A stretch of 64,000 nucleotides of DNA from Patescibacteria group bacterium (lineage in GTDB: Bacteria > Patescibacteriota > Patescibacteriia > Patescibacteriales > UBA12465): contig JBBACQ010000003.1 of the NCBI GenBank assembly GCA_041656935.1, positions 27,358 through 91,357 on the forward strand, read 5' to 3'. Positions within the stretch are counted from its first letter, which is position 1; every line of letters starts with the position of its first letter. The notes beneath the pieces were generated by a model. It had not been told where the DNA came from, did not search any database, and worked only from the letters and a program-made list of their open reading frames with translations. This document shows positions 1-50,687 of this stretch, one piece after another. Both the position numbers and the translations under genes were made by a program.

Positions 1-3000
1 AGTTACACTCGCGCATTTCTAAGCAAATTTTTTCGTTAGTTTCTTGATCAATTGTGTAAGAATAACAAGCTAACCATTTTCCACAAACTCTATCCGGATC
101 AACCTTTAACAAGGTATTAGCGTCACAACTGGCCCCCGAACAAGTAGAATAATTTGTATAATTATAAGCATTAAAATTTAAAGGATTAATAATACCATTA
201 TTATAAGACCGCTCATTAAATAAAACACAACCTTTACTAAAATCGGCTCCTGAGCAAGAATCGGAATTTAAATTTTGTTTTAATTGATAATCAATCACTG
301 CTTCTCTAAGCTCAATTTGAGAATCAGGCTCTCCTATAAGAAATGTCCCGGAAGGTCTTTCATAAATAACCCAACAAGGATTATTATCCCCTGAATAAAA
401 AGACTTTTTATTATACCCACTTACATTTTTGCTAACCTTAACAAAATAACTAGAAGGAGCAACCGGAGATATAAGAGGATCTAAAAAAGTATTAGAAGAA
501 TCCAATTCATATATAGGATTAACACAAAATATTGTGGCATCTTGCTCTCCTTTAGTTTCCAAAATGTAAAGCTTATTATTTTTTATGTTTAAATTTTGTT
601 GATATTTAATATTTTGCGAACAAACAATTTCGTCATCATCAAGAGTGCAAGCACCGGTAATTTCTTCCCAAAAATCAAATATTTGACCATCACCATCTAA
701 ATCAAGGAAACTAGAATTTATAATAATATTAGAACCAAAAGAACTAACCGGATCAATATATTCTGTACAACCAGCTTGTTTTATCGGACAAAGTCCAGCC
801 CACTTAACTTTATTATCATCCTCAGTCGGTTGATCAATCGCCGAGCCTCCCCAACCAATTGTTTTTAAATTATCAACAGCACATAAATGATCAATATTAT
901 CTAAAGAGCAAGAAACATTAACAGCGCAATCACTATCAGTTACACATAAAATTCCTGTTCCTCCGCACCGATTAACCTTTTTCTTATACCAATTTAAAGC
1001 AGTTATTTCAGTTGTTCCCGAAACAATTTTTCCCGAACGCCATTGACAGACATTATCTCCGGGATCCTTAAAATAAATGGTGCCAGACTGACTACTGGAA
1101 TTCCAAGCGTCACAACCAAGCTCATTATTGGTACAGAGAAATCCATTAGTAGTAGTCGCCTTATTAGGATCATATTTCAAATAAGTATCTTGATAAACAT
1201 TTTCCACCAACATTTTTCCGAAAAGACTACAGCCCATATTAGCCGAGGAACAAGCCTTGCCAGTATCATAGACTACCGCCTGAAAAGAATAATTAGTCGG
1301 ATTATAAGAATTATAATTATTAGTTTTGACCATCATTTCACAACCGACGGCACTATCATCACAAATCTTAGAAAAATTAATTAAACTATGATTATTATTA
1401 AGACGATCACTATAATTTTGACAACCTAAATTGTAATTTTCAGTTTGTTGATTACCTAAAACATCAAATTTACAAATAGCGGGAACAGCCCAAGAATCCT
1501 TTATTAAATAATATCTATTACTAATTTCTAATAAAACAATATTAGCGATATAGACATTTCCTGAAGAATCAGAAATTTTGAAAACCAAATCTTCACCACT
1601 AATCACAGAATGATCTAAGTTTTCTAAATTAACCTGATAAAGGGTCCAGTCATCACTATCAGAAATTTGTACCCCCTGAACTTCTTGATCATCTTTATTC
1701 ACCGAACCAAACAAACTTTCCGCTGTTCCATCAGTAAAGTATATTGATAAATTTTCAGCTTGATTGCTTTTGGCTAAAAATTTAATTATATAGGAAGACC
1801 CCGTTTTAGCTAAATTACCAATATTATTTTGCATTTCATCTGTTAACAGAATTGAACTTCCCCCTTGACCTAAGGCTTCGGTGGTGCTAACCGAAACGTC
1901 TCCTGCCCAATCTTCTAAGCCATAATTAAAATCAAAGGAATCAACAATTCTAACACTATTACCGGAATTACCATTATACTCTCGACAACCATTAACACTG
2001 GCTGAGCAACCCTGTCCTTCCCCAGGGATAGATTTATACAAACAAGCTTTTTGAGTATTATCCCACCAACCACCATTTAGACAATGGTAACAAACATTTA
2101 AACCACTATCCCAAGAAGCTACTAACGGTTGTCCAGCTTGATTTAAGCTCAAACAACCAGAAGAGTCAGTATAGGCATAGTTAATATTCTTTTCAGTCAT
2201 CCGATAGGTTTTACAATTTGCTGAGCAAGAAATAGATTTGGAATAAAGAATATAGAAAATCTGACCAGCTTGATTATAGAACTCTCGACAATCAGAATTA
2301 TATCCAGGATCAGAAACTGGTTTATTATAAATATTTTGATCGCAGACAGTGCTTCCATTAATTTCATGTTGCCAAATATTAGCCGAAGAAGAAGTTAAAC
2401 TTCCAACGGTTAATTTAATATTTTTATTGGAACTACTAATGGCCTCTAAGCTATAAGATTTTAATTGATAACCACCACCACTAACACCTTCCCAAGAATA
2501 AAAATTTTCGCAAGTTCCTCCATCGGGCTTAATACAATGTTTTAAACTAGTGTAATATTCTTTACCCTCTCCACCAACAGCTAATTCATCTAAATTAGTA
2601 AATTCGGTACAACCAGATTGGCTAGCATTACAAGAAGTAGCCGAAGAAGGAATTAATTTTTCAATCGCTCTATTTTCAAATAAAGTATTTTTTTGTACAT
2701 AAACATCATAACCGACACATTGATTCGGACAATAATTCTTATCTAAAACCTTACCAGTAATTTTTAAATTATAAATCGAAGTAAAAGTTTCACAACCGAC
2801 TTCATCGTTATTACATAAACGAGCATATTTATAACACTCGCTCGGAGCATTAGTTTTTAACCTAAAATCAGTTGGAGAAACATAACAGATATTTTTTAAA
2901 TACTCCGGAATAATTTTTTCATAAATTAAACCATTGCCACGATACTCCGAATAGAAAGTCCCAACAGCTCCTTTTTCTAATTTTATATCATCGATATAAC

Positions 3001-5332
3001 AACTATTTCCATTAGGATTAATAGTAAAATTAACTTTATTAGAACCATAAATATCGGGGAAAGTATAGGTTAAGCTCTGATATTCAAAACCACCTGAATT
3101 ACTAATATTTTTAGGCAAGCTACCTCCTAAAGAGAAACTAGAAGTAGCCGTTCCCGAACAATAAGAATAAAAAGATAAGGTATAAGTTTCCCCACCGATA
3201 TTATAACTACTACTAGCAACTGTTATGTCCTCGGATAAAGAAGAAGAACTAGGAAGATATAAGGAAAGTTGACCAGTATAAAAATTAGTACTAGTAGAAT
3301 AAGAATCCCAACCACCAATACTCAAATCATCTTCAAAACTTCCATTTAATAAAAAATTATGGCCAACGCCTACGGCTGTTCTAATAAACTCTTGGCAACC
3401 CTCATCGTTAGCTGAACAAGATTGAATTTTATTGTTAAAATAATAAGAGCTGGAAATATCCCAAGTTACTTTTTTATTAAAAGAGTCATAGGTCAAGGGA
3501 ACAACATATTTTTTACAACCAACATTTTCCGCATCACAGCCTTCATAGTCAAGAGTGTTCTTTAATAAAGCTAATTTCTTACCGTTAGAAACACTAGTAA
3601 AATAATCGCAGGTATTATAAACTGGATCACAAGAATCTTCTGAAAAGTTCCAAATTCTTTTCTCTTCTAAACAATAACCATAATATTCACAGGTACCATC
3701 CGACCTCTCTTTAATACAGGATTGTTCGTCAGCACAATAATTATCAGACCGAGAAACAATAATCGGTTTAACACCAGTTTGTTGATAAATATCTTCGGCG
3801 ACATTAACCAATTGTTGACTAGCAATATGACCGCCGTATCCTTGACGTTTGCAATAATTTAAAGGCGCCTTTAGAACCCAATTAGGATCAATTAATCCTC
3901 GGCACCATAATGAATTTGAATCTTCCCCACCATAACCAGATTTAATAAAACCATCACTATAAGTTTCATAATCATCCTCGCTAGAAAAACAAGAAACAAA
4001 ATCCATTAAAGTATAGCGATAACCTTTATCAGTTGTTTTTTCTTCAGCTAAATTAAGAGCCTCTTCCCAACCCAAAGGGATAATACGAAACTTTCGTAAA
4101 ATAATTAAGGAACGATGATTAAACCCAGTGGTGTAATCAGAATATCTTTCTAAAGTCCAATCAGGATTTAAATAACCATTATCAATGGCCTCAATTACAG
4201 TATTTTTATTCTCAACTGCCTGTCGGAATTGATTATCAATAACACAATTATTCGGTCTCGGATTTTTAGGATCTAAACAAACAATTAAATCCGATAAAAT
4301 ATTATAATCAGCTCGAACGTTGAAGCGAGGTTTAATAACTTTTTTTAATGATTCTATTACATATTTCTGACCAGAGAATGAAGAGGGGTCAGAATCCGAA
4401 GAAGTATAATCTGGACCACCGTTGTCTGAAGAAGCATCCGGATCTTTTTTACCTAAATTTTTAACTATATTATTAAAAGCAGTTATTGCTAATTGATTTA
4501 AAAAAATATTAGAAGCGTCCACCAAAGCATTGCCAGTAAACTTTCCTAAATTTTGTACCAAGGCTGAGTCAGCTTGTTGTAATTCTCTCTCGGCCTGTCC
4601 GGGAGGAGTATCAGTTGTTCCACCAATATTTCTCAAATCTAACCAACCATTATTTATTTTTACCTGTTCTTCAATTTTTTCCTGTTCTTCATCCCCAATC
4701 TCGGCTGACCGACCAAAAAGTTCTAGAGCAATGGTAACATCATTGCCAGTTGGCTCAAACATATTGGCTACCTTGCTTAAATAGTCTGGACCGCTCATGC
4801 TAGCCCATTTTTCATATTCGTTCACCCAACTAGATTTTAATTCTTGCCAACCACACCTAGGAGCATAAAATTCTGGCTGGGAAAGAGCCACCAAACCTAA
4901 ACCCATTTTTACTTGAGTATCAAAACTAGGTTGACATAAATCAAATTGCCAATCTTTACTTAAGGTATCAATAAACTTACCAATTGCCGCATCTCTAGTT
5001 TTACTACCCAAATCGGTTAAATATTCTGTAGTAAATAATGGTTTTTGCCCCGCTTCACCACTACCAATCCAAGTAGCAACATCGAAAGCTAGAGTATTTA
5101 AGACCGATTGCAGAGTAGATTGAAAAGCCAAAGACCCAGCTTTTTTTAATTGGTCGGCCAAATCATCTTTGATATAATCAACAACTCCTCTAATAACACC
5201 AGTTGGTCCACCAATAACATCCGGGCCAGCCTGAACTTTGAAAGGATAAGATAGGGTTCCAAAAATAAAAGAGAAAATTAAAAAAAGAATTAAAATTTTC
5301 CCTTTATAAAAATTGAATTTAGGCTTATTCAT
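1..5332 (-). CDS. Giant secreted/cell-surface cysteine-rich protein, N-terminal >1777 aa; the gene continues beyond the window start
   Basis: Open minus-strand frame from ATG at 5332-5330 to position 1. I spot-translated three places: MNKPKFNFYKGKILILFLIFSFIFG at the start, SLEAISSSNKNIKLTVG near 2400, and CYSYTIDQETNEKICLEMRECN at 1-61. It has a hydrophobic N-terminal signal/anchor, is very Cys-rich, and contains NGSFEDD..GGW jelly-roll/CBM-like stretches. It is absent from the ORF track because there is no stop inside the window. Confidence 0.8.
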   Translation of the reverse strand, partial: MNKPKFNFYKGKILILFLIFSFIFGTLSYPFKVQAGPDVIGGPTGVIRGVVDYIKDDLADQLKKAGSLAFQSTLQSVLNTLAFDVATWIGSGEAGQKPLFTTEYLTDLGSKTRDAAIGKFIDTLSKDWQFDLCQPSFDTQVKMGLGLVALSQPEFYAPRCGWQELKSSWVNEYEKWASMSGPDYLSKVANMFEPTGNDVTIALELFGRSAEIGDEEQEKIEEQVKINNGWLDLRNIGGTTDTPPGQAERELQQADSALVQNLGKFTGNALVDASNIFLNQLAITAFNNIVKNLGKKDPDASSDNGGPDYTSSDSDPSSFSGQKYVIESLKKVIKPRFNVRADYNILSDLIVCLDPKNPRPNNCVIDNQFRQAVENKNTVIEAIDNGYLNPDWTLERYSDYTTGFNHRSLIILRKFRIIPLGWEEALNLAEEKTTDKGYRYTLMDFVSCFSSEDDYETYSDGFIKSGYGGEDSNSLWCRGLIDPNWVLKAPLNYCKRQGYGGHIASQQLVNVAEDIYQQTGVKPIIVSRSDNYCADEQSCIKERSDGTCEYYGYCLEEKRIWNFSEDSCDPVYNTCDYFTSVSNGKKLALLKNTLDYEGCDAENVGCKKYVVPLTYDSFNKKVTWDISSSYYFNNKIQSCSANDEGCQEFIRTAVGVGHNFLLNGSFEDDLSIGGWDSYSTSTNFYTGQLSLYLPSSSSLSEDITVASSSYNIGGETYTLSFYSYCSGTATSSFSLGGSLPKNISNSGGFEYQSLTYTFPDIYGSNKVNFTINPNGNSCYIDDIKLEKGAVGTFYSEYRGNGLIYEKIIPEYLKNICYVSPTDFRLKTNAPSECYKYARLCNNDEVGCETFTSIYNLKITGKVLDKNYCPNQCVGYDVYVQKNTLFENRAIEKLIPSSATSCNASQSGCTEFTNLDELAVGGEGKEYYTSLKHCIKPDGGTCENFYSWEGVSGGGYQLKSYSLEAISSSNKNIKLTVGSLTSSSANIWQHEINGSTVCDQNIYNKPVSDPGYNSDCREFYNQAGQIFYILYSKSISCSANCKTYRMTEKNINYAYTDSSGCLSLNQAGQPLVASWDSGLNVCYHCLNGGWWDNTQKACLYKSIPGEGQGCSASVNGCREYNGNSGNSVRIVDSFDFNYGLEDWAGDVSVSTTEALGQGGSSILLTDEMQNNIGNLAKTGSSYIIKFLAKSNQAENLSIYFTDGTAESLFGSVNKDDQEVQGVQISDSDDWTLYQVNLENLDHSVISGEDLVFKISDSSGNVYIANIVLLEISNRYYLIKDSWAVPAICKFDVLGNQQTENYNLGCQNYSDRLNNNHSLINFSKICDDSAVGCEMMVKTNNYNSYNPTNYSFQAVVYDTGKACSSANMGCSLFGKMLVENVYQDTYLKYDPNKATTTNGFLCTNNELGCDAWNSSSQSGTIYFKDPGDNVCQWRSGKIVSGTTEITALNWYKKKVNRCGGTGILCVTDSDCAVNVSCSLDNIDHLCAVDNLKTIGWGGSAIDQPTEDDNKVKWAGLCPIKQAGCTEYIDPVSSFGSNIIINSSFLDLDGDGQIFDFWEEITGACTLDDDEIVCSQNIKYQQNLNIKNNKLYILETKGEQDATIFCVNPIYELDSSNTFLDPLISPVAPSSYFVKVSKNVSGYNKKSFYSGDNNPCWVIYERPSGTFLIGEPDSQIELREAVIDYQLKQNLNSDSCSGADFSKGCVLFNERSYNNGIINPLNFNAYNYTNYSTCSGASCDANTLLKVDPDRVCGKWLACYSYTIDQETNEKICLEMRECN

Positions 5333-44801: not shown

Positions 44802-46532
44802 TCAATTTTCTAAAATGACATCTTCGCCTTCTTTTATTTCTTGCTCTTCCTTTTTTTTATTGTCTCTATCTTCCTTTTTATTATAAAAACTAACTGGTTT
44901 AACCATTTTTAATTCTTCTAAACTCAAGCTCTTTTGATTTTTCTCTACTTTGTCCTCAACTGGCTTATAATTATTTTTTTCTAAACCATTTTTAACCGCA
45001 AAATTATTATTATTTTTAGGAAAATCTTTTTTTATACTTTTAACCGGAGGATTACTCTTAACCGCCGGACGATTAATCAAACATTCTCTACAATAAACTG
45101 GTCTAACCCCATCTGGTTCAAAGGGCAGGCTAACCTCAACTCCGCAAGAGGAACATTTACTCTGAAACCCCTTATTAGAAAAATCCTTTTTATCTTTCTT
45201 ATAATCTTCTTTTTTATTATCTGGAGCTCCTTTATCTTTTTTTTCTTCTGAATAATCTTGATGCCAGCGCATAATTTTTTCTTCTACCAACTCTCTCTCA
45301 CTAGCATATTTCTGTCTAGAATAAGAAATAACCTTTTCAACGTTATCGGTTTTTTCTTCAGTTAATAATGGTGGCAGACCACGAGCTGAAAAAGGATCCG
45401 AAGAAATTCCATCAATCATTAATTTTAAATACATTTCATATTTAGGTAAATTAACAATATCTTCCTCGGTAAAAACAGGAGTAAATTCTTTAACTAATTC
45501 TTCCGCATCAGCTGCTCCAACACGAAAAACAATAATCGTTCCAACGTTTCCAAAAACTGCTGGCTTAACTCGCTCATCTAACTGTTCAATGTATTGATGA
45601 GCCATAACTAGATTTAAACGATATTTTCTGGCCTCTGATAAAATATTAGCGAAACTTTCGGTAGAGAAGTTCTGAAATTCGTCAATGTATAAATAAAAAT
45701 CTTTTCGATCTTCTTCGTTAATATTAACCCGGCTCATAGCGGCTAATTGAATTTTAGTAATCATCATAGCACCCAATAGAGCCGAATTGTCTTCACCAAT
45801 TCTTCCCTTACTTAAATTCATGATAAGAATTTTACCTTCATCCATTATTTTTCTCATATCAATTGAAGATTTAACCTGACCAACAATATTTCTCATAAAA
45901 GAACTAGATAAAAATTGACCAACCTTATTTTGGATCGGAGAAACTGCCTCGGAAGCAAATTTGTCCGCATAAGAAGCAAACTCTTTCTCCCAAAAGGATT
46001 TAACCACTGGATCTTTAATGTTGGCGACCACCTTTTTACGATATTCCTTATCAGACAACATTCTAACTACTCCTAAAAGAGTAGACCCGGGGAAATCTAA
46101 AATAGCTAAAATGGAATTTCTCAAAATATATTCTAAACGAGGGCCCCAAGAATCAGCCCATAATTTTTGAAAGACGCCAATCAAACCCGAGGCAACTAAA
46201 TGTCTAAGGTGAGGTTCAACCTGTTCTACTAAATTAAAAGCAATTGGGTAATCAATATCTGAGGGGTTAAAATAAACGACGTCATTTATTCTATTATTAG
46301 GAATATATTGAATAATTTTTTCAGCTAAATCTCCGTGCGGATCAACTACCGCCACTCCTTTACCAGCTCTAATATCTTCAACTATCATATTTTCTAAAAT
46401 AGTTGATTTACCCATACCAGTTTTTCCAATTAAATACATGTGCCGACGACGATCGTCAGTTTTAATACCAAAACGTCGCATTTGATTGCGAAAATTGGTT
46501 TTAGCGAAAAATATTATATCATTATCAATCAT
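44802..46532 (-). CDS. VirD4/TraG/HerA-superfamily P-loop ATPase with a C-terminal Zn-ribbon
   Basis: Walker A GKTGMGKST, Walker B YLYIDEFQNF, RKYRLNLVMAHQ. The tail has CSSCG...YCRECL after a Lys/Asp-rich linker. Confidence 0.6.
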   Translation of the reverse strand: MIDNDIIFFAKTNFRNQMRRFGIKTDDRRRHMYLIGKTGMGKSTILENMIVEDIRAGKGVAVVDPHGDLAEKIIQYIPNNRINDVVYFNPSDIDYPIAFNLVEQVEPHLRHLVASGLIGVFQKLWADSWGPRLEYILRNSILAILDFPGSTLLGVVRMLSDKEYRKKVVANIKDPVVKSFWEKEFASYADKFASEAVSPIQNKVGQFLSSSFMRNIVGQVKSSIDMRKIMDEGKILIMNLSKGRIGEDNSALLGAMMITKIQLAAMSRVNINEEDRKDFYLYIDEFQNFSTESFANILSEARKYRLNLVMAHQYIEQLDERVKPAVFGNVGTIIVFRVGAADAEELVKEFTPVFTEEDIVNLPKYEMYLKLMIDGISSDPFSARGLPPLLTEEKTDNVEKVISYSRQKYASERELVEEKIMRWHQDYSEEKKDKGAPDNKKEDYKKDKKDFSNKGFQSKCSSCGVEVSLPFEPDGVRPVYCRECLINRPAVKSNPPVKSIKKDFPKNNNNFAVKNGLEKNNYKPVEDKVEKNQKSLSLEELKMVKPVSFYNKKEDRDNKKKEEQEIKEGEDVILEN

Positions 46533-46555
46533 AAAAATATATTTTTACCCAAAAA

Positions 46556-46873
46556 TTACTGAGGGAGTTGAGAATATGCCCCTAATGTCTCGATTAAATC
46601 TTGGAAAGAAGATGAAAACCCACTTAGAAATGGCGGTAAATATGTTAAAGCTAAAATAAGGGGCACTATAATTAAAAAAAGTTTAATCCAAGAAAGAATC
46701 TTCTGCCAAACAATATATTTTCTTATATACTTGGTTAGTTTCAAAATTTCTTGACTAACCTTTAAATTCTCTTCGACTAAATCATGTAGTTCTAGCCCAC
46801 TTTTAAATACTTCTTTTAAACCACCAGCTGAAAGAGTTTCCTCTTTATTGTTATTATCTTCAATGTTTTTCAT
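46556..46873 (-). CDS. Small membrane protein
   Basis: ORF with one or two C-terminal hydrophobic helices. Confidence 0.4.
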   Translation of the reverse strand: MKNIEDNNNKEETLSAGGLKEVFKSGLELHDLVEENLKVSQEILKLTKYIRKYIVWQKILSWIKLFLIIVPLILALTYLPPFLSGFSSSFQDLIETLGAYSQLPQ

Positions 46874-46973: not shown

Positions 46974-47696
46974 TTATTCTCTTATTTGACAATTAGGAAC
47001 ATTTTTCTTAATTTCTCCAAGAATTGAATCAATATCCTGAGAAGAGAAAAAATCTTGATTACGAAAGTCGTTATTAACTAAATTTGTATCTGATTTAAAT
47101 TTTTGTAGAAACCATTTTTTAGCTCCAGCAATTTCAACTGATATCTTTATAATATCTTCTAAACTGTGCAAACTTGGAACTAAGGTAGTCCGAAATTCAT
47201 ATGGTAAATCACCAGCCATTAATAACTCCACTGACTTTTTAATATTTTCAATATTAACTTTAACTCCAACAATTTTTTCATATTTAGACAATGGAGCTTT
47301 AATATCCATAGCTACATAGTCAAGAATTTTTTTATCTAATAATTTCTTTAATATCTCAGGGTTTGTTCCGTTAGTATCCAATTTAATTTTAAAACCCAAT
47401 TTCCTTATTTTGATTATAAACTCCTCTAAGTCAGCTTGGAGGGTCGGTTCTCCTCCTGAAATAACAACTCCATCAATTTTACCAATCCGACTTTCTAAAA
47501 AAAGAAAAAAGTCATCCTCACTAATTAGAGAATGACCCTCTTCTTTATATTCAACTTTGTTCTCACCCGCGGTCAGAACAAGCATGGGATTATAACAAAA
47601 ATGACAACGGAAATTACAAGAATTAGTAAAAACAATTGTTGCTATACATCCAGGAAAATCAATTAAACTAAGTTTTTCTAATCCGCCTATTATCAT
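46974..47696 (-). CDS. nrdG: Anaerobic ribonucleotide reductase activating protein (radical SAM)
   Basis: CNFRCHFCYN CxxxCxxC cluster motif, GGEPT. Adjacent to nrdD. Confidence 0.9.
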   Translation of the reverse strand: MIIGGLEKLSLIDFPGCIATIVFTNSCNFRCHFCYNPMLVLTAGENKVEYKEEGHSLISEDDFFLFLESRIGKIDGVVISGGEPTLQADLEEFIIKIRKLGFKIKLDTNGTNPEILKKLLDKKILDYVAMDIKAPLSKYEKIVGVKVNIENIKKSVELLMAGDLPYEFRTTLVPSLHSLEDIIKISVEIAGAKKWFLQKFKSDTNLVNNDFRNQDFFSSQDIDSILGEIKKNVPNCQIRE

Positions 47697-47735
47697 TTTA
47701 AAAATAAAAAAGTACTAGAAACCAGAAAGTAGAAA

Positions 47736-47891
47736 CTATTGATTAACGCTTTCCGATTTAATCTTATAGGTCTTACGATCATTGTATTCAGATACTTTTC
47801 CCTTATTATAGCATTTAGTTGGGGTAAGCCATCCGACTACCCGGCTATAAATAATACACTCGGTTCTCTTGTCACTTTGAATTGGACTCAT
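47736..47891 (-). CDS. Stand-alone 51-aa ORF carrying the NrdD C-terminal glycyl-radical motif
   Basis: My own translation: MSPIQSDKRTECIIYSRVVGWLTPTKCYNKGKVSEYNDRKTYKIKSESVNQ. RVVGW..YNKGK..E..DR matches the class III RNR RVxGY..WNxGK..E..R C-terminus. Below the ORF-track cutoff, and antisense to track ORF 47739-47930. Confidence 0.65.
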   Translation of the reverse strand: MSPIQSDKRTECIIYSRVVGWLTPTKCYNKGKVSEYNDRKTYKIKSESVNQ

Positions 47892-47971
47892 ATTCGTGTA
47901 TTAAGCTCTATATTTCGATTTAAAATATAGAAACTTATTATTAATTATTAATTATTTTAATATTTAAAATT

Positions 47972-50032
47972 TTAAACGGCTTCACTAACGGGATTAATAT
48001 TTTCAACAATAACAGCAGATGCTTGAGCATTTTCCTCGTCACATTTAGGACAATACTTATGTTCACCTGATAGATAGCCATGGATTGGGCAAATAGAAAA
48101 AGTCGGGGTTATGGTAAAGTATGGTAGCTTATATTTTTCTACTATAGTCTTAACTAATTTTTTGGTCAATTCGGGATCACTTATTCTTTCACCTAAAAAT
48201 CCATGCAAAACTGTTCCTCCGGTATATTTAATTTGTAATTCATCTTGCAAATCTAAGGCTGTAAATAAATCATCAGTAAAATTTACTGGTAAATGAGTAG
48301 AATTTGTATAATAAGGGTCAGCTCCTTTTTCATTAACCAATTCATTATTAGCGCAAATAATATCCGGATACATTTCCTTATCTTTCTTAGCAAAACGATA
48401 AGTACAACCTTCCGCTGGAGTAGCTTCTAAATTATAAAGGTCGCCCGATTCTTCTTGAAAATTAGAAATCATATCTCGCATAAAATCCATTATCTCTAAA
48501 GCAAATTTATAACCCCTAGCGCTAGCAATATTTTCCCCTAATAAATTTAAAACGCCCTCGTTCATACCATTTAAACCAATGGTATTAAAATGATTTTTCC
48601 AATAAGAACCGAATTGATCTTTAATGCTTTGTAAATAATATTTAGAATACGGATAAAGATTTTCTCCAGTTAATTTTTCGATAACTTTTCTTTTTATTTC
48701 TAAACTCTCTTTGGCTAGATTCATTAATCTTGTTAAACGATCTTTAAAATCTTTTTCATCTTTAGCTAAATAACCTAATCGGGCCATATTAATAGTTACC
48801 ACTCCTAAACTACCAGTTAAAGGATTAGCCCCGAATAGACCACCACCTCTTTTTCTAAGCTCTCTATTATCTAATCTCAAACGACAACACATACTACGAG
48901 CATCATCTCTATCCATATCAGAATTAACAAAGTTAGAAAAATAAGGAACTCCATATTTAGAAGTCATTTCCCACATTGGTTTTAAGCTTTCTCTGTTCCA
49001 ATCAAATTCTTTATCAATATTATAGGTAGGGATAGGAAAAGCGAAAACTCTACCAGTAGCGTCACCTTCAATCATAACCTCAGCAAAAGCTTTATTAAAG
49101 AGATCCATTTCCGTTTGGAAATCACCATATTTCTCATCCATTATTTTTCCTCCAATAATAACATTTTCTTCCTTCATGGCTTTGGATGGAATAACGTCAA
49201 GAGTTACATTGGTAAAAGGGGTTTGAAAACCAACTCTGGTAGGAACATTAACATTGAAAACAAACTCTTGGAGAGCCTGCTTTATCTCTTTGAAAGATAA
49301 ATCATCATATCTAATAAAAGGAGCTAAATAAGTATCAAAATTAGAAAAAGCTTGAGCTCCAGCTGCCTCACCTTGCATGGTATAAAAAAAGTTTATTATT
49401 TGTCCTAAAGCGGTTCTAAAATGTTTTGGTGGTTTACTCTGTATTTTAGTATCAACTCCACCAAAACCCCTTAATAAAAGATCCTTGATATCCCAACCGC
49501 AACAATAAGGAGCTAATAAGCCTAAATCATGAATATGAAAATCAGCTTCAGCATGAGCCTTTCTAATATCTTCAGGATAAAGTTTATTCAACCAATATTT
49601 AGCTGAAATTGAAGAAGCAATATAATTATTCAAACCCTGAACCGAAAAACTCATATTACTATTTTCTTTCAACCTCCAATCAGAACCACCTAAATAATCT
49701 TCCATTAATTTTTCTTCATTACTCTGACTGATCTCTCTAATCTGACGTCGTTGGTCACGATACAAAATAAAATTTTTAGCAGTTTGGATAAGTTTATTCT
49801 CTATTAAAGTTTCCTCTACTAAGTCCTGAACCTCTTCCACAGCTGGAATAGTTTTATAATGAAATTTTTTACCAATTTTTTCTAAAACTTGTAAACTTAA
49901 TTTATCAGCTGTCTCTTCATTACCCTCTTCAGCAACCTTCATTGCTTTAAAGATGGCCGAACTTATTTTTTTAATATCAAAATCAGCAATATCACCCGAG
50001 CGTTTTAAAATTTTAGAAATATTATTTGGCAT
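47972..50032 (-). CDS. nrdD: Anaerobic ribonucleoside-triphosphate reductase (class III), lacking its own glycyl-radical motif
   Basis: N-terminal ATP-cone and an NrdD core. The Zn-site region CPIHGY...CPKC is followed by a non-conserved tail (AQASAVIVENINPVSEAV) and a stop. Confidence 0.9.
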   Translation of the reverse strand: MPNNISKILKRSGDIADFDIKKISSAIFKAMKVAEEGNEETADKLSLQVLEKIGKKFHYKTIPAVEEVQDLVEETLIENKLIQTAKNFILYRDQRRQIREISQSNEEKLMEDYLGGSDWRLKENSNMSFSVQGLNNYIASSISAKYWLNKLYPEDIRKAHAEADFHIHDLGLLAPYCCGWDIKDLLLRGFGGVDTKIQSKPPKHFRTALGQIINFFYTMQGEAAGAQAFSNFDTYLAPFIRYDDLSFKEIKQALQEFVFNVNVPTRVGFQTPFTNVTLDVIPSKAMKEENVIIGGKIMDEKYGDFQTEMDLFNKAFAEVMIEGDATGRVFAFPIPTYNIDKEFDWNRESLKPMWEMTSKYGVPYFSNFVNSDMDRDDARSMCCRLRLDNRELRKRGGGLFGANPLTGSLGVVTINMARLGYLAKDEKDFKDRLTRLMNLAKESLEIKRKVIEKLTGENLYPYSKYYLQSIKDQFGSYWKNHFNTIGLNGMNEGVLNLLGENIASARGYKFALEIMDFMRDMISNFQEESGDLYNLEATPAEGCTYRFAKKDKEMYPDIICANNELVNEKGADPYYTNSTHLPVNFTDDLFTALDLQDELQIKYTGGTVLHGFLGERISDPELTKKLVKTIVEKYKLPYFTITPTFSICPIHGYLSGEHKYCPKCDEENAQASAVIVENINPVSEAV

Positions 50033-50096: not shown

Positions 50097-50570
50097 TTAT
50101 TTTTTATTAATATTTTTTTTATTTTTTAATAATTTATCTAATTCTTCACTGAACTCTTCTAAATCTTCAAAAGATTGATAAACCGAAGCGTATCTAATAT
50201 AGGCTACCTTGTCTAATTTTTTTAAATTCTTCATGGCGATTTCTCCTACCTCAGTAGATTCAATTTCATTTTTATTAGTAATTTGTAAATCTTTTTCAAT
50301 ACAATAAATAAGTTTCTGAAATTTTTCCTCATCTACCCCTCTTTTTTCTAAAGCCTTCTTTAAACCAGAACTCAACTTATCACGATTATAGGCTTCTCGA
50401 CGACCATCTTTTTTTAAAACAACTAAATCAAGAATTTCCATCTCTTCATGAGTAGAAAAACGAAATTCACATTTTAAACACTCTCTACGACGACGAATAA
50501 GAAAACCATCTCCCGACATTCTAGAGTCTATTACCTTAGTGTCCTCAAAGTTGCAAACTGGGCATTTCAT
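50097..50570 (-). CDS. nrdR: Transcriptional repressor NrdR
   Basis: MKCPVCNFEDTKVIDSR...CLKCEFRFSTHE Zn ribbon plus ATP-cone. The track ORF is extended 13 codons upstream of the likely start. Confidence 0.9.
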   Translation of the reverse strand: MKCPVCNFEDTKVIDSRMSGDGFLIRRRRECLKCEFRFSTHEEMEILDLVVLKKDGRREAYNRDKLSSGLKKALEKRGVDEEKFQKLIYCIEKDLQITNKNEIESTEVGEIAMKNLKKLDKVAYIRYASVYQSFEDLEEFSEELDKLLKNKKNINKK

Positions 50571-50603
50571 TGGTTTTTTTATGATTTTATAAAAAATAAG
50601 TAA

Positions 50604-50687
50604 ACACAATATATAGTATAATAATTATTAAGTTAACCACTATATATTGTTATTATAAATTATAGCAGAAATTTTAGATTAAGCCAA
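50604..50687 (-). promoter_or_regulatory. nrdR-nrdD-nrdG promoter with two NrdR-box-like palindromes
   Basis: Boxes ACACAATATATAGTAT (50604-50619) and CCACTATATATTGTTA (50637-50652) sit about three helical turns apart. They lie downstream of minus-strand TTGGCT (50687-50682)-17 nt-TATAAT (50664-50659). Confidence 0.65.

Follow-up and report, generated by a model that had tools for sequence, protein, structure and literature searches.

An anaerobic ribonucleotide reductase predicted to work as two polypeptides, with the glycyl-radical loop on a separate small protein

A reductase encoded in two pieces

We analyzed a 64,000-nucleotide stretch of a Patescibacteria group bacterium (GenBank assembly GCA_041656935.1, contig JBBACQ010000003.1, positions 27,358 to 91,357 of the forward strand; this whole stretch is referred to as the window, and coordinates are given in its own numbering). 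In it, the anaerobic (class III) ribonucleotide reductase (RNR) NrdD is encoded in two pieces, a large protein of 686 amino acids (aa) that lacks the glycyl-radical loop and a small protein of 51 aa that carries it. This is very probably a functional class III RNR composed of two polypeptides, and the comparisons described here argue that such a two-gene anaerobic RNR is genuine, ancient and widespread. The split is neither a lesion, nor an assembly error, nor an intron. As far as can be told from open-access papers and preprints, this two-gene form of NrdD is undescribed: that literature describes split NrdJ and phage nrdD genes interrupted by introns, inteins or endonuclease genes, and contained no report of a split NrdD whose glycine peptide is separate.

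The radical of a glycyl radical enzyme is taken to reside on the enzyme's own C-terminal domain; GrcA, the only exception known, serves as a repair part for an enzyme that is itself intact. If our reading is true, the reductase described here would be the first glycyl radical enzyme with its radical residue on a separate polypeptide by design, and an obligate two-piece reductase would show a radical loop working in trans as the normal state. It would also provide a natural system for parting the installation of the radical by the activase from docking and catalysis, and the cultured Halothermothrix orenii and Aminobacterium, which encode the same division, make the split enzyme directly testable. 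With respect to annotation, many genomes name these reductases complete and leave the small open reading frame (ORF) unnamed or hypothetical.

The two ORFs complement each other along NrdD

The genes concerned lie on the minus strand. The large-subunit gene nrdD (47972..50032) encodes an ATP-cone, the catalytic barrel and a zinc ribbon; its product ends in FSICPIHGYLSGEHKYCPKCDEENAQASAVIVENINPVSEAV and a stop codon, and no RVxG[YWF] motif occurs anywhere in its 686 residues. It is followed by a spacer of 80 nucleotides (nt; 47892..47971) with stop codons in all three frames, and then by the small ORF (47736..47891), which lies in a different frame from nrdD (offset 2) and encodes MSPIQSDKRTECIIYSRVVGWLTPTKCYNKGKVSEYNDRKTYKIKSESVNQ, the glycyl-radical loop together with the NrdD C-terminal tail as a separate polypeptide. 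After a further 39 nt comes nrdG (46974..47696), the dedicated activase found beside class III reductases, here a radical S-adenosylmethionine (SAM) protein of 240 aa recognized by Pfam Radical_SAM and by TIGR02495 (NrdG2, 204 bits with a cutoff of 131). These coordinates confirm the arrangement given in a preliminary description of the locus, namely nrdD, an 80-nt gap, a 51-aa ORF in another frame and nrdG. Its authors had also named a second intact nrdD as evidence that would count against a split enzyme; a tblastn search found no second nrdD, small ORF or nrdG in the 64-kb window, each being present there in one copy.

Profile comparisons divide NrdD precisely between the two products. On the Pfam NRDD model (PF13597, 562 positions) the large ORF covers positions 1-531 (E 1.9e-184) and the small ORF positions 531-562 (E 3.9e-06, above the gathering score), and on NF006126/PRK08270 (684 positions), the nearest curated family, they cover positions 3-656 (1041 bits, cutoff 548) and 650-683, respectively. 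The large and small ORFs complement each other exactly along the NrdD profile, the small one being indeed, as the preliminary description had it, exactly the missing C-terminus. Together with TIGR02487 (524 bits, cutoff 326), both models recognize the class III NrdD catalytic barrel in the large ORF. For the small ORF, the last 32 NRDD positions are the only match, which makes it a small stand-alone homologue of the glycine-radical end; scans of Pfam and NCBIfam gave no match to the pyruvate formate-lyase (PFL)/Gly_radical family, NrdD models being the only ones to match.

The motif missing from the large chain is present in the small ORF as RVVGW (aa 17-21, 47829..47843), in which G20 is the predicted radical glycine and R17, V18 and G20 are invariant in the small-protein alignment (A1). 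In alignments it corresponds to YMRIVGYL in the NrdD of T. maritima (4COI) and to RITGYL in that of P. copri (8P23). We expect the radical glycine to be supplied to the 686-aa chain in trans. When compared with NrdDs of solved structure, the large subunit can be aligned as far as the last zinc Cys pair, and the alignment of the small subunit starts one residue ahead of RxxGY, so that the break lies within the few residues between these two motifs. The corresponding junction in intact proteins reads CPECGVRSEVYSRVVGY in a phage NrdD (L168) and CTKCDSQCEVYSRVVGY in an intact fragment (P0285). Relative to these, the window has about 170 extra nt, made up of a 19-aa tail, a stop codon, the 80-nt gap and 10 leader codons, close to the inserted length of about 160 nt estimated earlier from the letters alone.

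When used as a query, the 51-aa protein retrieved 32 homologues, all of them stand-alone proteins of 43-69 aa that share the pattern MSPx..KRxECIIYSRVVGWLTPTxNWNxGKxSEYxDRK. In two small proteins (P0156 and P0187) the glycine motif occurs as a tandem repeat of EVYSRVVGYLSPVSHWNEGKKEEW, which may reflect a real duplication or an artefact of assembly.

What the large subunit retains

Apart from the loop, the large subunit has the parts of a class III reductase. An ATP-cone spans aa 7-96 (49745..50014; PF03477, E 1.1e-18), and the Cys pair C382-C383 of the finger loop, within SMCCRLRLD (48884..48889), is by homology the site of the thiyl radical. A double-Cys finger loop is characteristic of the T. 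maritima-type lineage (PMC9669993). The zinc ribbon, C648-x2-H651...C661-x2-C664 (48041..48091), also remains on the large subunit. In an alignment of 73 large-subunit sequences (A6) the protein is highly conserved, with hundreds of invariant columns that include the finger-loop cysteines and all four residues of the zinc site.

The second zinc ligand is His in 119 of 119 scored split large subunits, as well as in 86 of 86 loci, and the site is thus a Cys3His variant with putative metal-binding function. The intact phage NrdD L168 shares the Cys-x2-His arrangement, and the intact fragment P0285 has Cys-x2-Cys. We considered whether the conserved Cys12 of the peptide might act as a fourth, inter-chain zinc ligand, and rejected this because L168 is intact and yet has Cys-x2-His and because some of the peptides lack this Cys.

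Past the zinc site, the large subunit of the window continues for a non-conserved tail of 22 aa (DEENAQASAVIVENINPVSEAV, 47975..48040) and then stops, in agreement with the earlier statement that nrdD ends soon after its zinc site in a non-conserved tail and lacks RVxGY. The tails of its relatives are 9-35 aa long and are conserved in their first residues (DEEIGY) only. The tail in the window contains no Cys. Many others end in a Cys pair (loci L007-L010, L012-L018, L020, L021, L023, L025, L066, L067, L076, L081 and L084-L086, and 35 of the 120 homologues P0033-P0152), with variants such as ..CSC, CNC, CQC, CAC, CQSC, CPDC, CSTC and ACC, and many small ORFs likewise finish with Cys (..KVCAE, SCC, CGC, CGSCGCDK). 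Together with the CC finger loop, these Cys-pair tails recall the redox-shuttle C-terminal tails of class I and class II RNRs, and in the roughly one third of relatives that have a Cys pair the newly freed C-terminus may serve as a shuttle tail of that kind.

Several split-type large subunits contain inteins at other sites (P0053, P0069, P0393, P0407, P0414, P0416, P0426 and L092 at 823-4053). Some of these inteins have LAGLIDADG domains, that of P0069 lies within the finger loop (SMC|intein|CRLRLD), and none sits at the break point.

The split is conserved and under purifying selection in Patescibacteria

To place the window among its relatives, we scanned GTDB with one genome per species, in which 254 species representatives encode a relative of the small ORF. 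The best 80 of these, all from Patescibacteria (Candidatus Falkowbacteria among them) and two of them complete chromosomes, were combined with six contigs from an exact protein look-up to give 86 loci. In all 86 the small ORF is a separate frame after a truncated nrdD, and the order nrdD, small ORF, nrdG was found in 79 of 79 loci. The 120 homologues closest to the large subunit of the window all lack the glycine motif. Related genomes therefore carry the same split, the point on which the preliminary description had proposed that orthologs be compared.

The small ORF is under strong purifying selection. Across its 35-codon core in 84 unique sequences, the mean proportion of synonymous differences (pS) is 0.79 and that of non-synonymous differences (pN) 0.12, and the median ratio of non-synonymous to synonymous substitution rates (dN/dS) is 0.067; synonymous sites are near saturation whereas replacement sites are not. 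Between the window and its nearest relative (L010), the core differs at 13 synonymous sites versus one non-synonymous site. Such values, and a split present in 86 of 86 loci, are at odds with the sporadic occurrence and relaxed selection of a pseudogene.

Many of the metagenome-assembled genomes with this operon (L008, L009, L011-L014 and others) are titled “uncultured Gammaproteobacteria bacterium”. Given their gene content and 31% G+C, this title looks like a placeholder or mislabel.

Evidence for independent expression of the small gene

Across the 86 loci, nrdD and the small ORF are 11 to 193 nt apart (median 70), and the small ORF stands at frame offsets of 0, 1 and 2 relative to nrdD in 41, 20 and 25 loci, respectively. 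Of 83 distinct spacers, 45 contain a perfect TTGNNN-N16-18-TATAAT promoter, mostly TTGTAA-N17-TATAAT; in shuffled spacers, such matches numbered 0.8 on average and 4 at most. The end of the -10 box is in some cases just 9 nt from the small-ORF ATG, so that the leader would be very short or absent. Transcription of the small ORF and nrdG apart from nrdD, sometimes almost without a leader, is suggested by these features. A terminator scan found none between nrdD and the small ORF. In the window, the spacer holds a weak promoter-like site (TTAATA-16-TATATT, 47924..47951) with 9 of 12 matches, which is not above chance in AT-rich DNA.

The spacer of the window also contains a hairpin (47903..47936) with a 9-bp core stem and 5 additional pairs, a 5-nt loop and a predicted energy of -8.8 kcal/mol, which ends 11 nt upstream of the small-ORF ATG. 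Folding of the whole gap gives z = -3.25 in the window, and z is below -2 in 19 of 73 gaps. Many relatives have a hairpin at the equivalent place with a sequence that differs by lineage; where the promoter occurs in the spacers of L011-L086, it is followed by a variable hairpin directly before the small-ORF ATG. No relevant Rfam family was detected over the whole window, nor over 47600-48200 at E<=1, and no intein Pfam domain was found in the large-subunit tail or the small ORF. There is thus neither a recognizable self-splicing RNA nor an intein at the break.

The same division in Halanaerobiales and Synergistota

A profile of the small protein was run against 1.84 billion cluster representatives and gave 4524 matches at E<=1e-3, of which 851 reached E<=1e-10. 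Among the best 150, every protein is 47-115 aa long, and nearly all start with Met and have no upstream zinc motif; the variants GW, GY and GF of the motif occur among them. Two contigs of 2.6-3.1 Mb (56% G+C locally) encode a truncated nrdD (687 aa), nrdG and then the small ORF, the latter preceded by a Shine-Dalgarno sequence. The order nrdD, nrdG, small ORF is that of L088 and L092. We used the L088 large subunit as a query and obtained 120 homologues, among them those from the cultured Halothermothrix orenii, Orenia, Halanaerobium, Iocasia, Aminobacterium, Aminirod, Dethiosulfovibrio and Jonquetella; the 119 of them with a recognizable zinc site are all truncated and have no glycine motif. 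Taken with the homologues of the window, the motif is absent from all 239 (120 + 119) closest full-length large subunits.

The finished genome of H. orenii H168 (CP001098.1) encodes an NrdD of 676 aa and an NrdG of 231 aa, followed by a 51-aa ORF (MEKKRQKCEVYSRVVGFLTPVSQWNKGKKEEFKDRLTYDKILDRDIISSAE). CP066698.1 and OW818634.1 are other complete genomes with the split. Aminobacterium has the same gene order with a small ORF of 48 aa, and in both organisms AAGGAGG precedes the small-ORF ATG. The presence of a whole nrdG gene between the two pieces rules out an explanation by splicing or recoding. Thus, the varying spacer, the altered gene order and, in many lineages, a promoter or ribosome-binding site of its own argue that the small ORF is a gene in its own right. 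Patescibacteria, Halanaerobiales and Synergistota have all conserved the split, which is under purifying selection.

The peptide gene can also occur apart from the reductase. In L090 (5001-5147) a gene for a 48-aa glycine peptide adjoins mraZ and rsmH, and the 5 kb to either side of it contain neither nrdD nor nrdG.

Stand-alone peptides encoded by phages

In IMG/VR, 237 viral contigs encode a relative of the peptide, and we scored the genomic contexts of the best 80. The peptide stands alone in 69 of these, with no nrdD or nrdG within 6 kb; a split nrdD is nearby in two and an intact NrdD in one. For instance, the peptide ORF of L101 lies between collagen-like tail-fibre genes and an endolysin gene, and that of L119 has an anti-repressor gene upstream; portal, HNH, RuvC and amidase genes accompany others. 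Peptides of the GW type, which resemble those of Patescibacteria, and of the GY type are both represented among the viral sequences (L093-L172, L091, L101, L119). PHROGs has no dedicated family for the peptide, and GenBank phage records contained no stand-alone copy, the few matches there being C-termini of intact NrdDs, e.g., that of an Oceanotoga phage.

During infection, phages that encode the peptide alone would supplement the host enzyme with additional radical carrier. We lean toward the view that these sequences form a large, undescribed family of autonomous class III RNR glycyl-radical peptides of 45-60 residues, which would be an obligate subunit in Patescibacteria, Halanaerobiales and Synergistota and, in phages, an auxiliary metabolic gene that recharges or takes over the host reductase. 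The phage copies would then be auxiliary metabolic genes of a novel type that act on the deoxynucleoside triphosphate supply of the host.

Relation to other reductases and proposed mechanism

The closest known systems are the single-chain NrdD/NrdG enzymes of phage T4, E. coli, T. maritima and P. copri, which share with the split form the ATP-cone, the barrel, the finger-loop cysteine(s), the C-terminal zinc ribbon, the RVxG[YFW] glycine loop and an adjacent radical-SAM activase. Unlike in these enzymes, the chain is cut here between the last zinc cysteine and the strand leading to the radical glycine, the glycine loop is a separate product of 45-51 aa, and the second zinc ligand is His rather than Cys. 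By domain content and gene context the system classifies as a class III RNR, with one defining feature of the family, the radical glycine that should be on the catalytic chain, predicted to be supplied in trans.

Precedents for a reductase in pieces exist in other RNR classes. In the split class II enzyme NrdJa/NrdJb of Pseudomonas aeruginosa and Thermus phage phiYS40, the catalytic chain is likewise encoded by two consecutive ORFs, and the break also parts the barrel from C-terminal elements (PMC9669993). The class Ia NrdA of Aeromonas phage Aeh1 is a product of genes in pieces, also two consecutive ORFs (PMC3653736). In both cases the two products are active as an enzyme once assembled. As in NrdJa/NrdJb, two ORFs here jointly cover one profile, which is an analogy and not membership, since the RNR class differs. 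The cofactor differs as well, and the separated piece of NrdJa/NrdJb and of Aeh1 NrdA is a large domain without the radical, not a 5-kDa peptide; moreover, the split in Aeh1 was made by a mobile endonuclease gene, and nothing of the kind is present at our locus.

The break can be understood from the structure of P. copri NrdD, in which the glycyl radical domain comprises the zinc site, a buried loop with the radical glycine and a tail that runs across the surface, and is highly mobile, moving as a rigid body apart from the core (PMC11226230). A break past the last zinc Cys pair leaves the zinc ribbon with the barrel and turns the loop and tail into the peptide. In the proposed mechanism, the 79-kDa large subunit would contribute the ATP-cone, a ten-stranded barrel with the Cys-Cys finger loop and the zinc ribbon, and the small subunit the buried loop with G20 of RVVGW and a short tail lying on the barrel surface. 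NrdG would abstract a hydrogen from the glycine of the peptide, either free or docked, to leave the radical on G20; the peptide loop would insert into the barrel beside C383, and catalysis would then proceed as in single-chain NrdD.

Oxygen cuts glycyl-radical proteins at the glycine. A separate loop would therefore make the radical carrier replaceable, cheap and independently expressed while the 79-kDa barrel is kept, and this would also explain phages that encode the peptide alone. Discarding a 5-kDa peptide and keeping the 79-kDa enzyme could thus be an inexpensive strategy for surviving oxygen.

Alternative explanations

The option of a genuine two-piece enzyme, one of three raised in the preliminary description, has gained strong support from the conserved split, the purifying selection, the promoters or Shine-Dalgarno sequences found in relatives and the permuted gene order. 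Several points weigh against it. The case is one of sequence comparison. The search for further copies covered the 64-kb window, and a second intact RNR may be present elsewhere. The spacer of the window has no Shine-Dalgarno motif and only the weak promoter-like site, and for this reason independent expression is argued from the relatives. Finally, AlphaFold2 gave a mean predicted local distance difference test score (pLDDT) of 33 for the concatenated large and small subunits from a single sequence; with 72 large-subunit homologues (A6) the mean rose to 63.5, with residues 670-737, the peptide region, below 30.

One alternative retains a two-gene system and changes the role of the peptide, which would be activated on NrdG and would transiently hand the radical to the large subunit, or to several enzymes, with the radical stored elsewhere. 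We regard such a shuttle as very unlikely. The peptide gene is mobile and often unlinked, in many Patescibacteria the peptide is predicted to be co-transcribed with nrdG from the internal promoter, and AlphaFold2 produced no confident docked pose, all of which would fit a shuttle. However, the peptide keeps the entire buried loop as well as the surface tail that makes the docked contacts in single-chain NrdD, and no alternative radical-storage residue is evident.

Still less probable, in our estimation, is that the peptide is a true spare part, i.e., a back-up or repair module, with reduction carried out by another, intact RNR elsewhere and the truncated NrdD inactive or devoted to another role. 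The model for this is GrcA/YfiD, to which the preliminary description had likened the small ORF. GrcA is also a small stand-alone mimic of the glycine-radical end, presumably activated by the activase of the parent enzyme, and it too has phage-encoded versions, such as Y06I of phage T4. It is a PFL homologue of about 127 aa that rescues a PFL whose loop has been destroyed by oxygen, whereas the peptide described here is a homologue of NrdD, has about 45-51 aa and would be obligatory, since its partner never had a loop. The likeness thus holds with respect to an autonomous carrier of the radical glycine and fails with respect to both ancestry and the partner, the split large subunits having no loop of their own to be replaced. 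Spare-part proteins are known for formate lyases only (2026 review, PMC13450708). Stand-alone copies far from any nrdD, in both bacteria and phages, are what would be expected of a spare part, and our RNR inventory is that of the window. On the other hand, with 0 of the 239 closest large subunits having a glycine loop, there is nothing to replace; the large subunit is highly conserved, invariant finger-loop cysteines included, and remains in an operon with nrdR, nrdG and the peptide; and the 64-kb window has no second nrdD. Because the partner large subunits have no glycine loop, an obligate subunit rather than a spare part is the best reading of the peptide from these comparisons.

It is scarcely plausible that a mini-intron, ribosomal bypassing or frameshifting, or a split intein joins the two pieces into one NrdD chain, although phage nrdD genes (T4 and others) are known to be interrupted by group I introns, inteins and homing endonuclease genes (PMC3653736) and there is a hairpin within the spacer. 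Those genes, like sunY of T4, share with ours an nrdD in more than one ORF, but their interruptions are spliced out or are recent lesions and lie at other sites, whereas the break described here contains neither an intron nor an intein, and the two pieces may have nrdG between them or be unlinked. Both the length and the sequence of the spacer are unconserved, the frame relation is effectively random, and the gap has stop codons in all frames and no Rfam family. These spacer and frame statistics, with the permuted gene order, led us to reject programmed frameshifting or bypassing. A split intein was likewise discarded, there being no intein domain and the tail of 9-35 aa and the leader of about 10 aa being too short for its halves. 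In Halanaerobiales and Synergistota a whole nrdG lies between the pieces, phages have the peptide gene alone, and the conserved ATG with a promoter or Shine-Dalgarno sequence points to separate initiation. The earlier suggestion of a small intervening sequence is therefore not supported. The remaining suggestion, a gene broken by a recent nonsense or frameshift lesion or by an assembly error in a contiguous nrdD, is of negligible probability: one window alone could not exclude it, but the same architecture recurs in 86 of 86 independent assemblies of different species, complete chromosomes included, and in the finished genome of the cultured H. orenii, and the downstream piece evolves with a dN/dS of 0.07.

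Genes flanking the reductase cluster

The cluster is headed by nrdR (50097..50609, minus strand), which encodes the transcriptional repressor of RNR genes (Pfam Zn_ribbon_NrdR, E 2.3e-18, and an ATP-cone) and is also found upstream of nrdD in L001, L003 and L005. Synteny between the window and these same three Patescibacteria extends downstream of nrdG (44802-46873 in the window). The first of the genes there encodes a protein of 81-105 aa that matches no family; the others encode a TrwB/TraD-like coupling ATPase, which has a zinc finger at its C-terminus, as well as RNase T and a glycosyltransferase.

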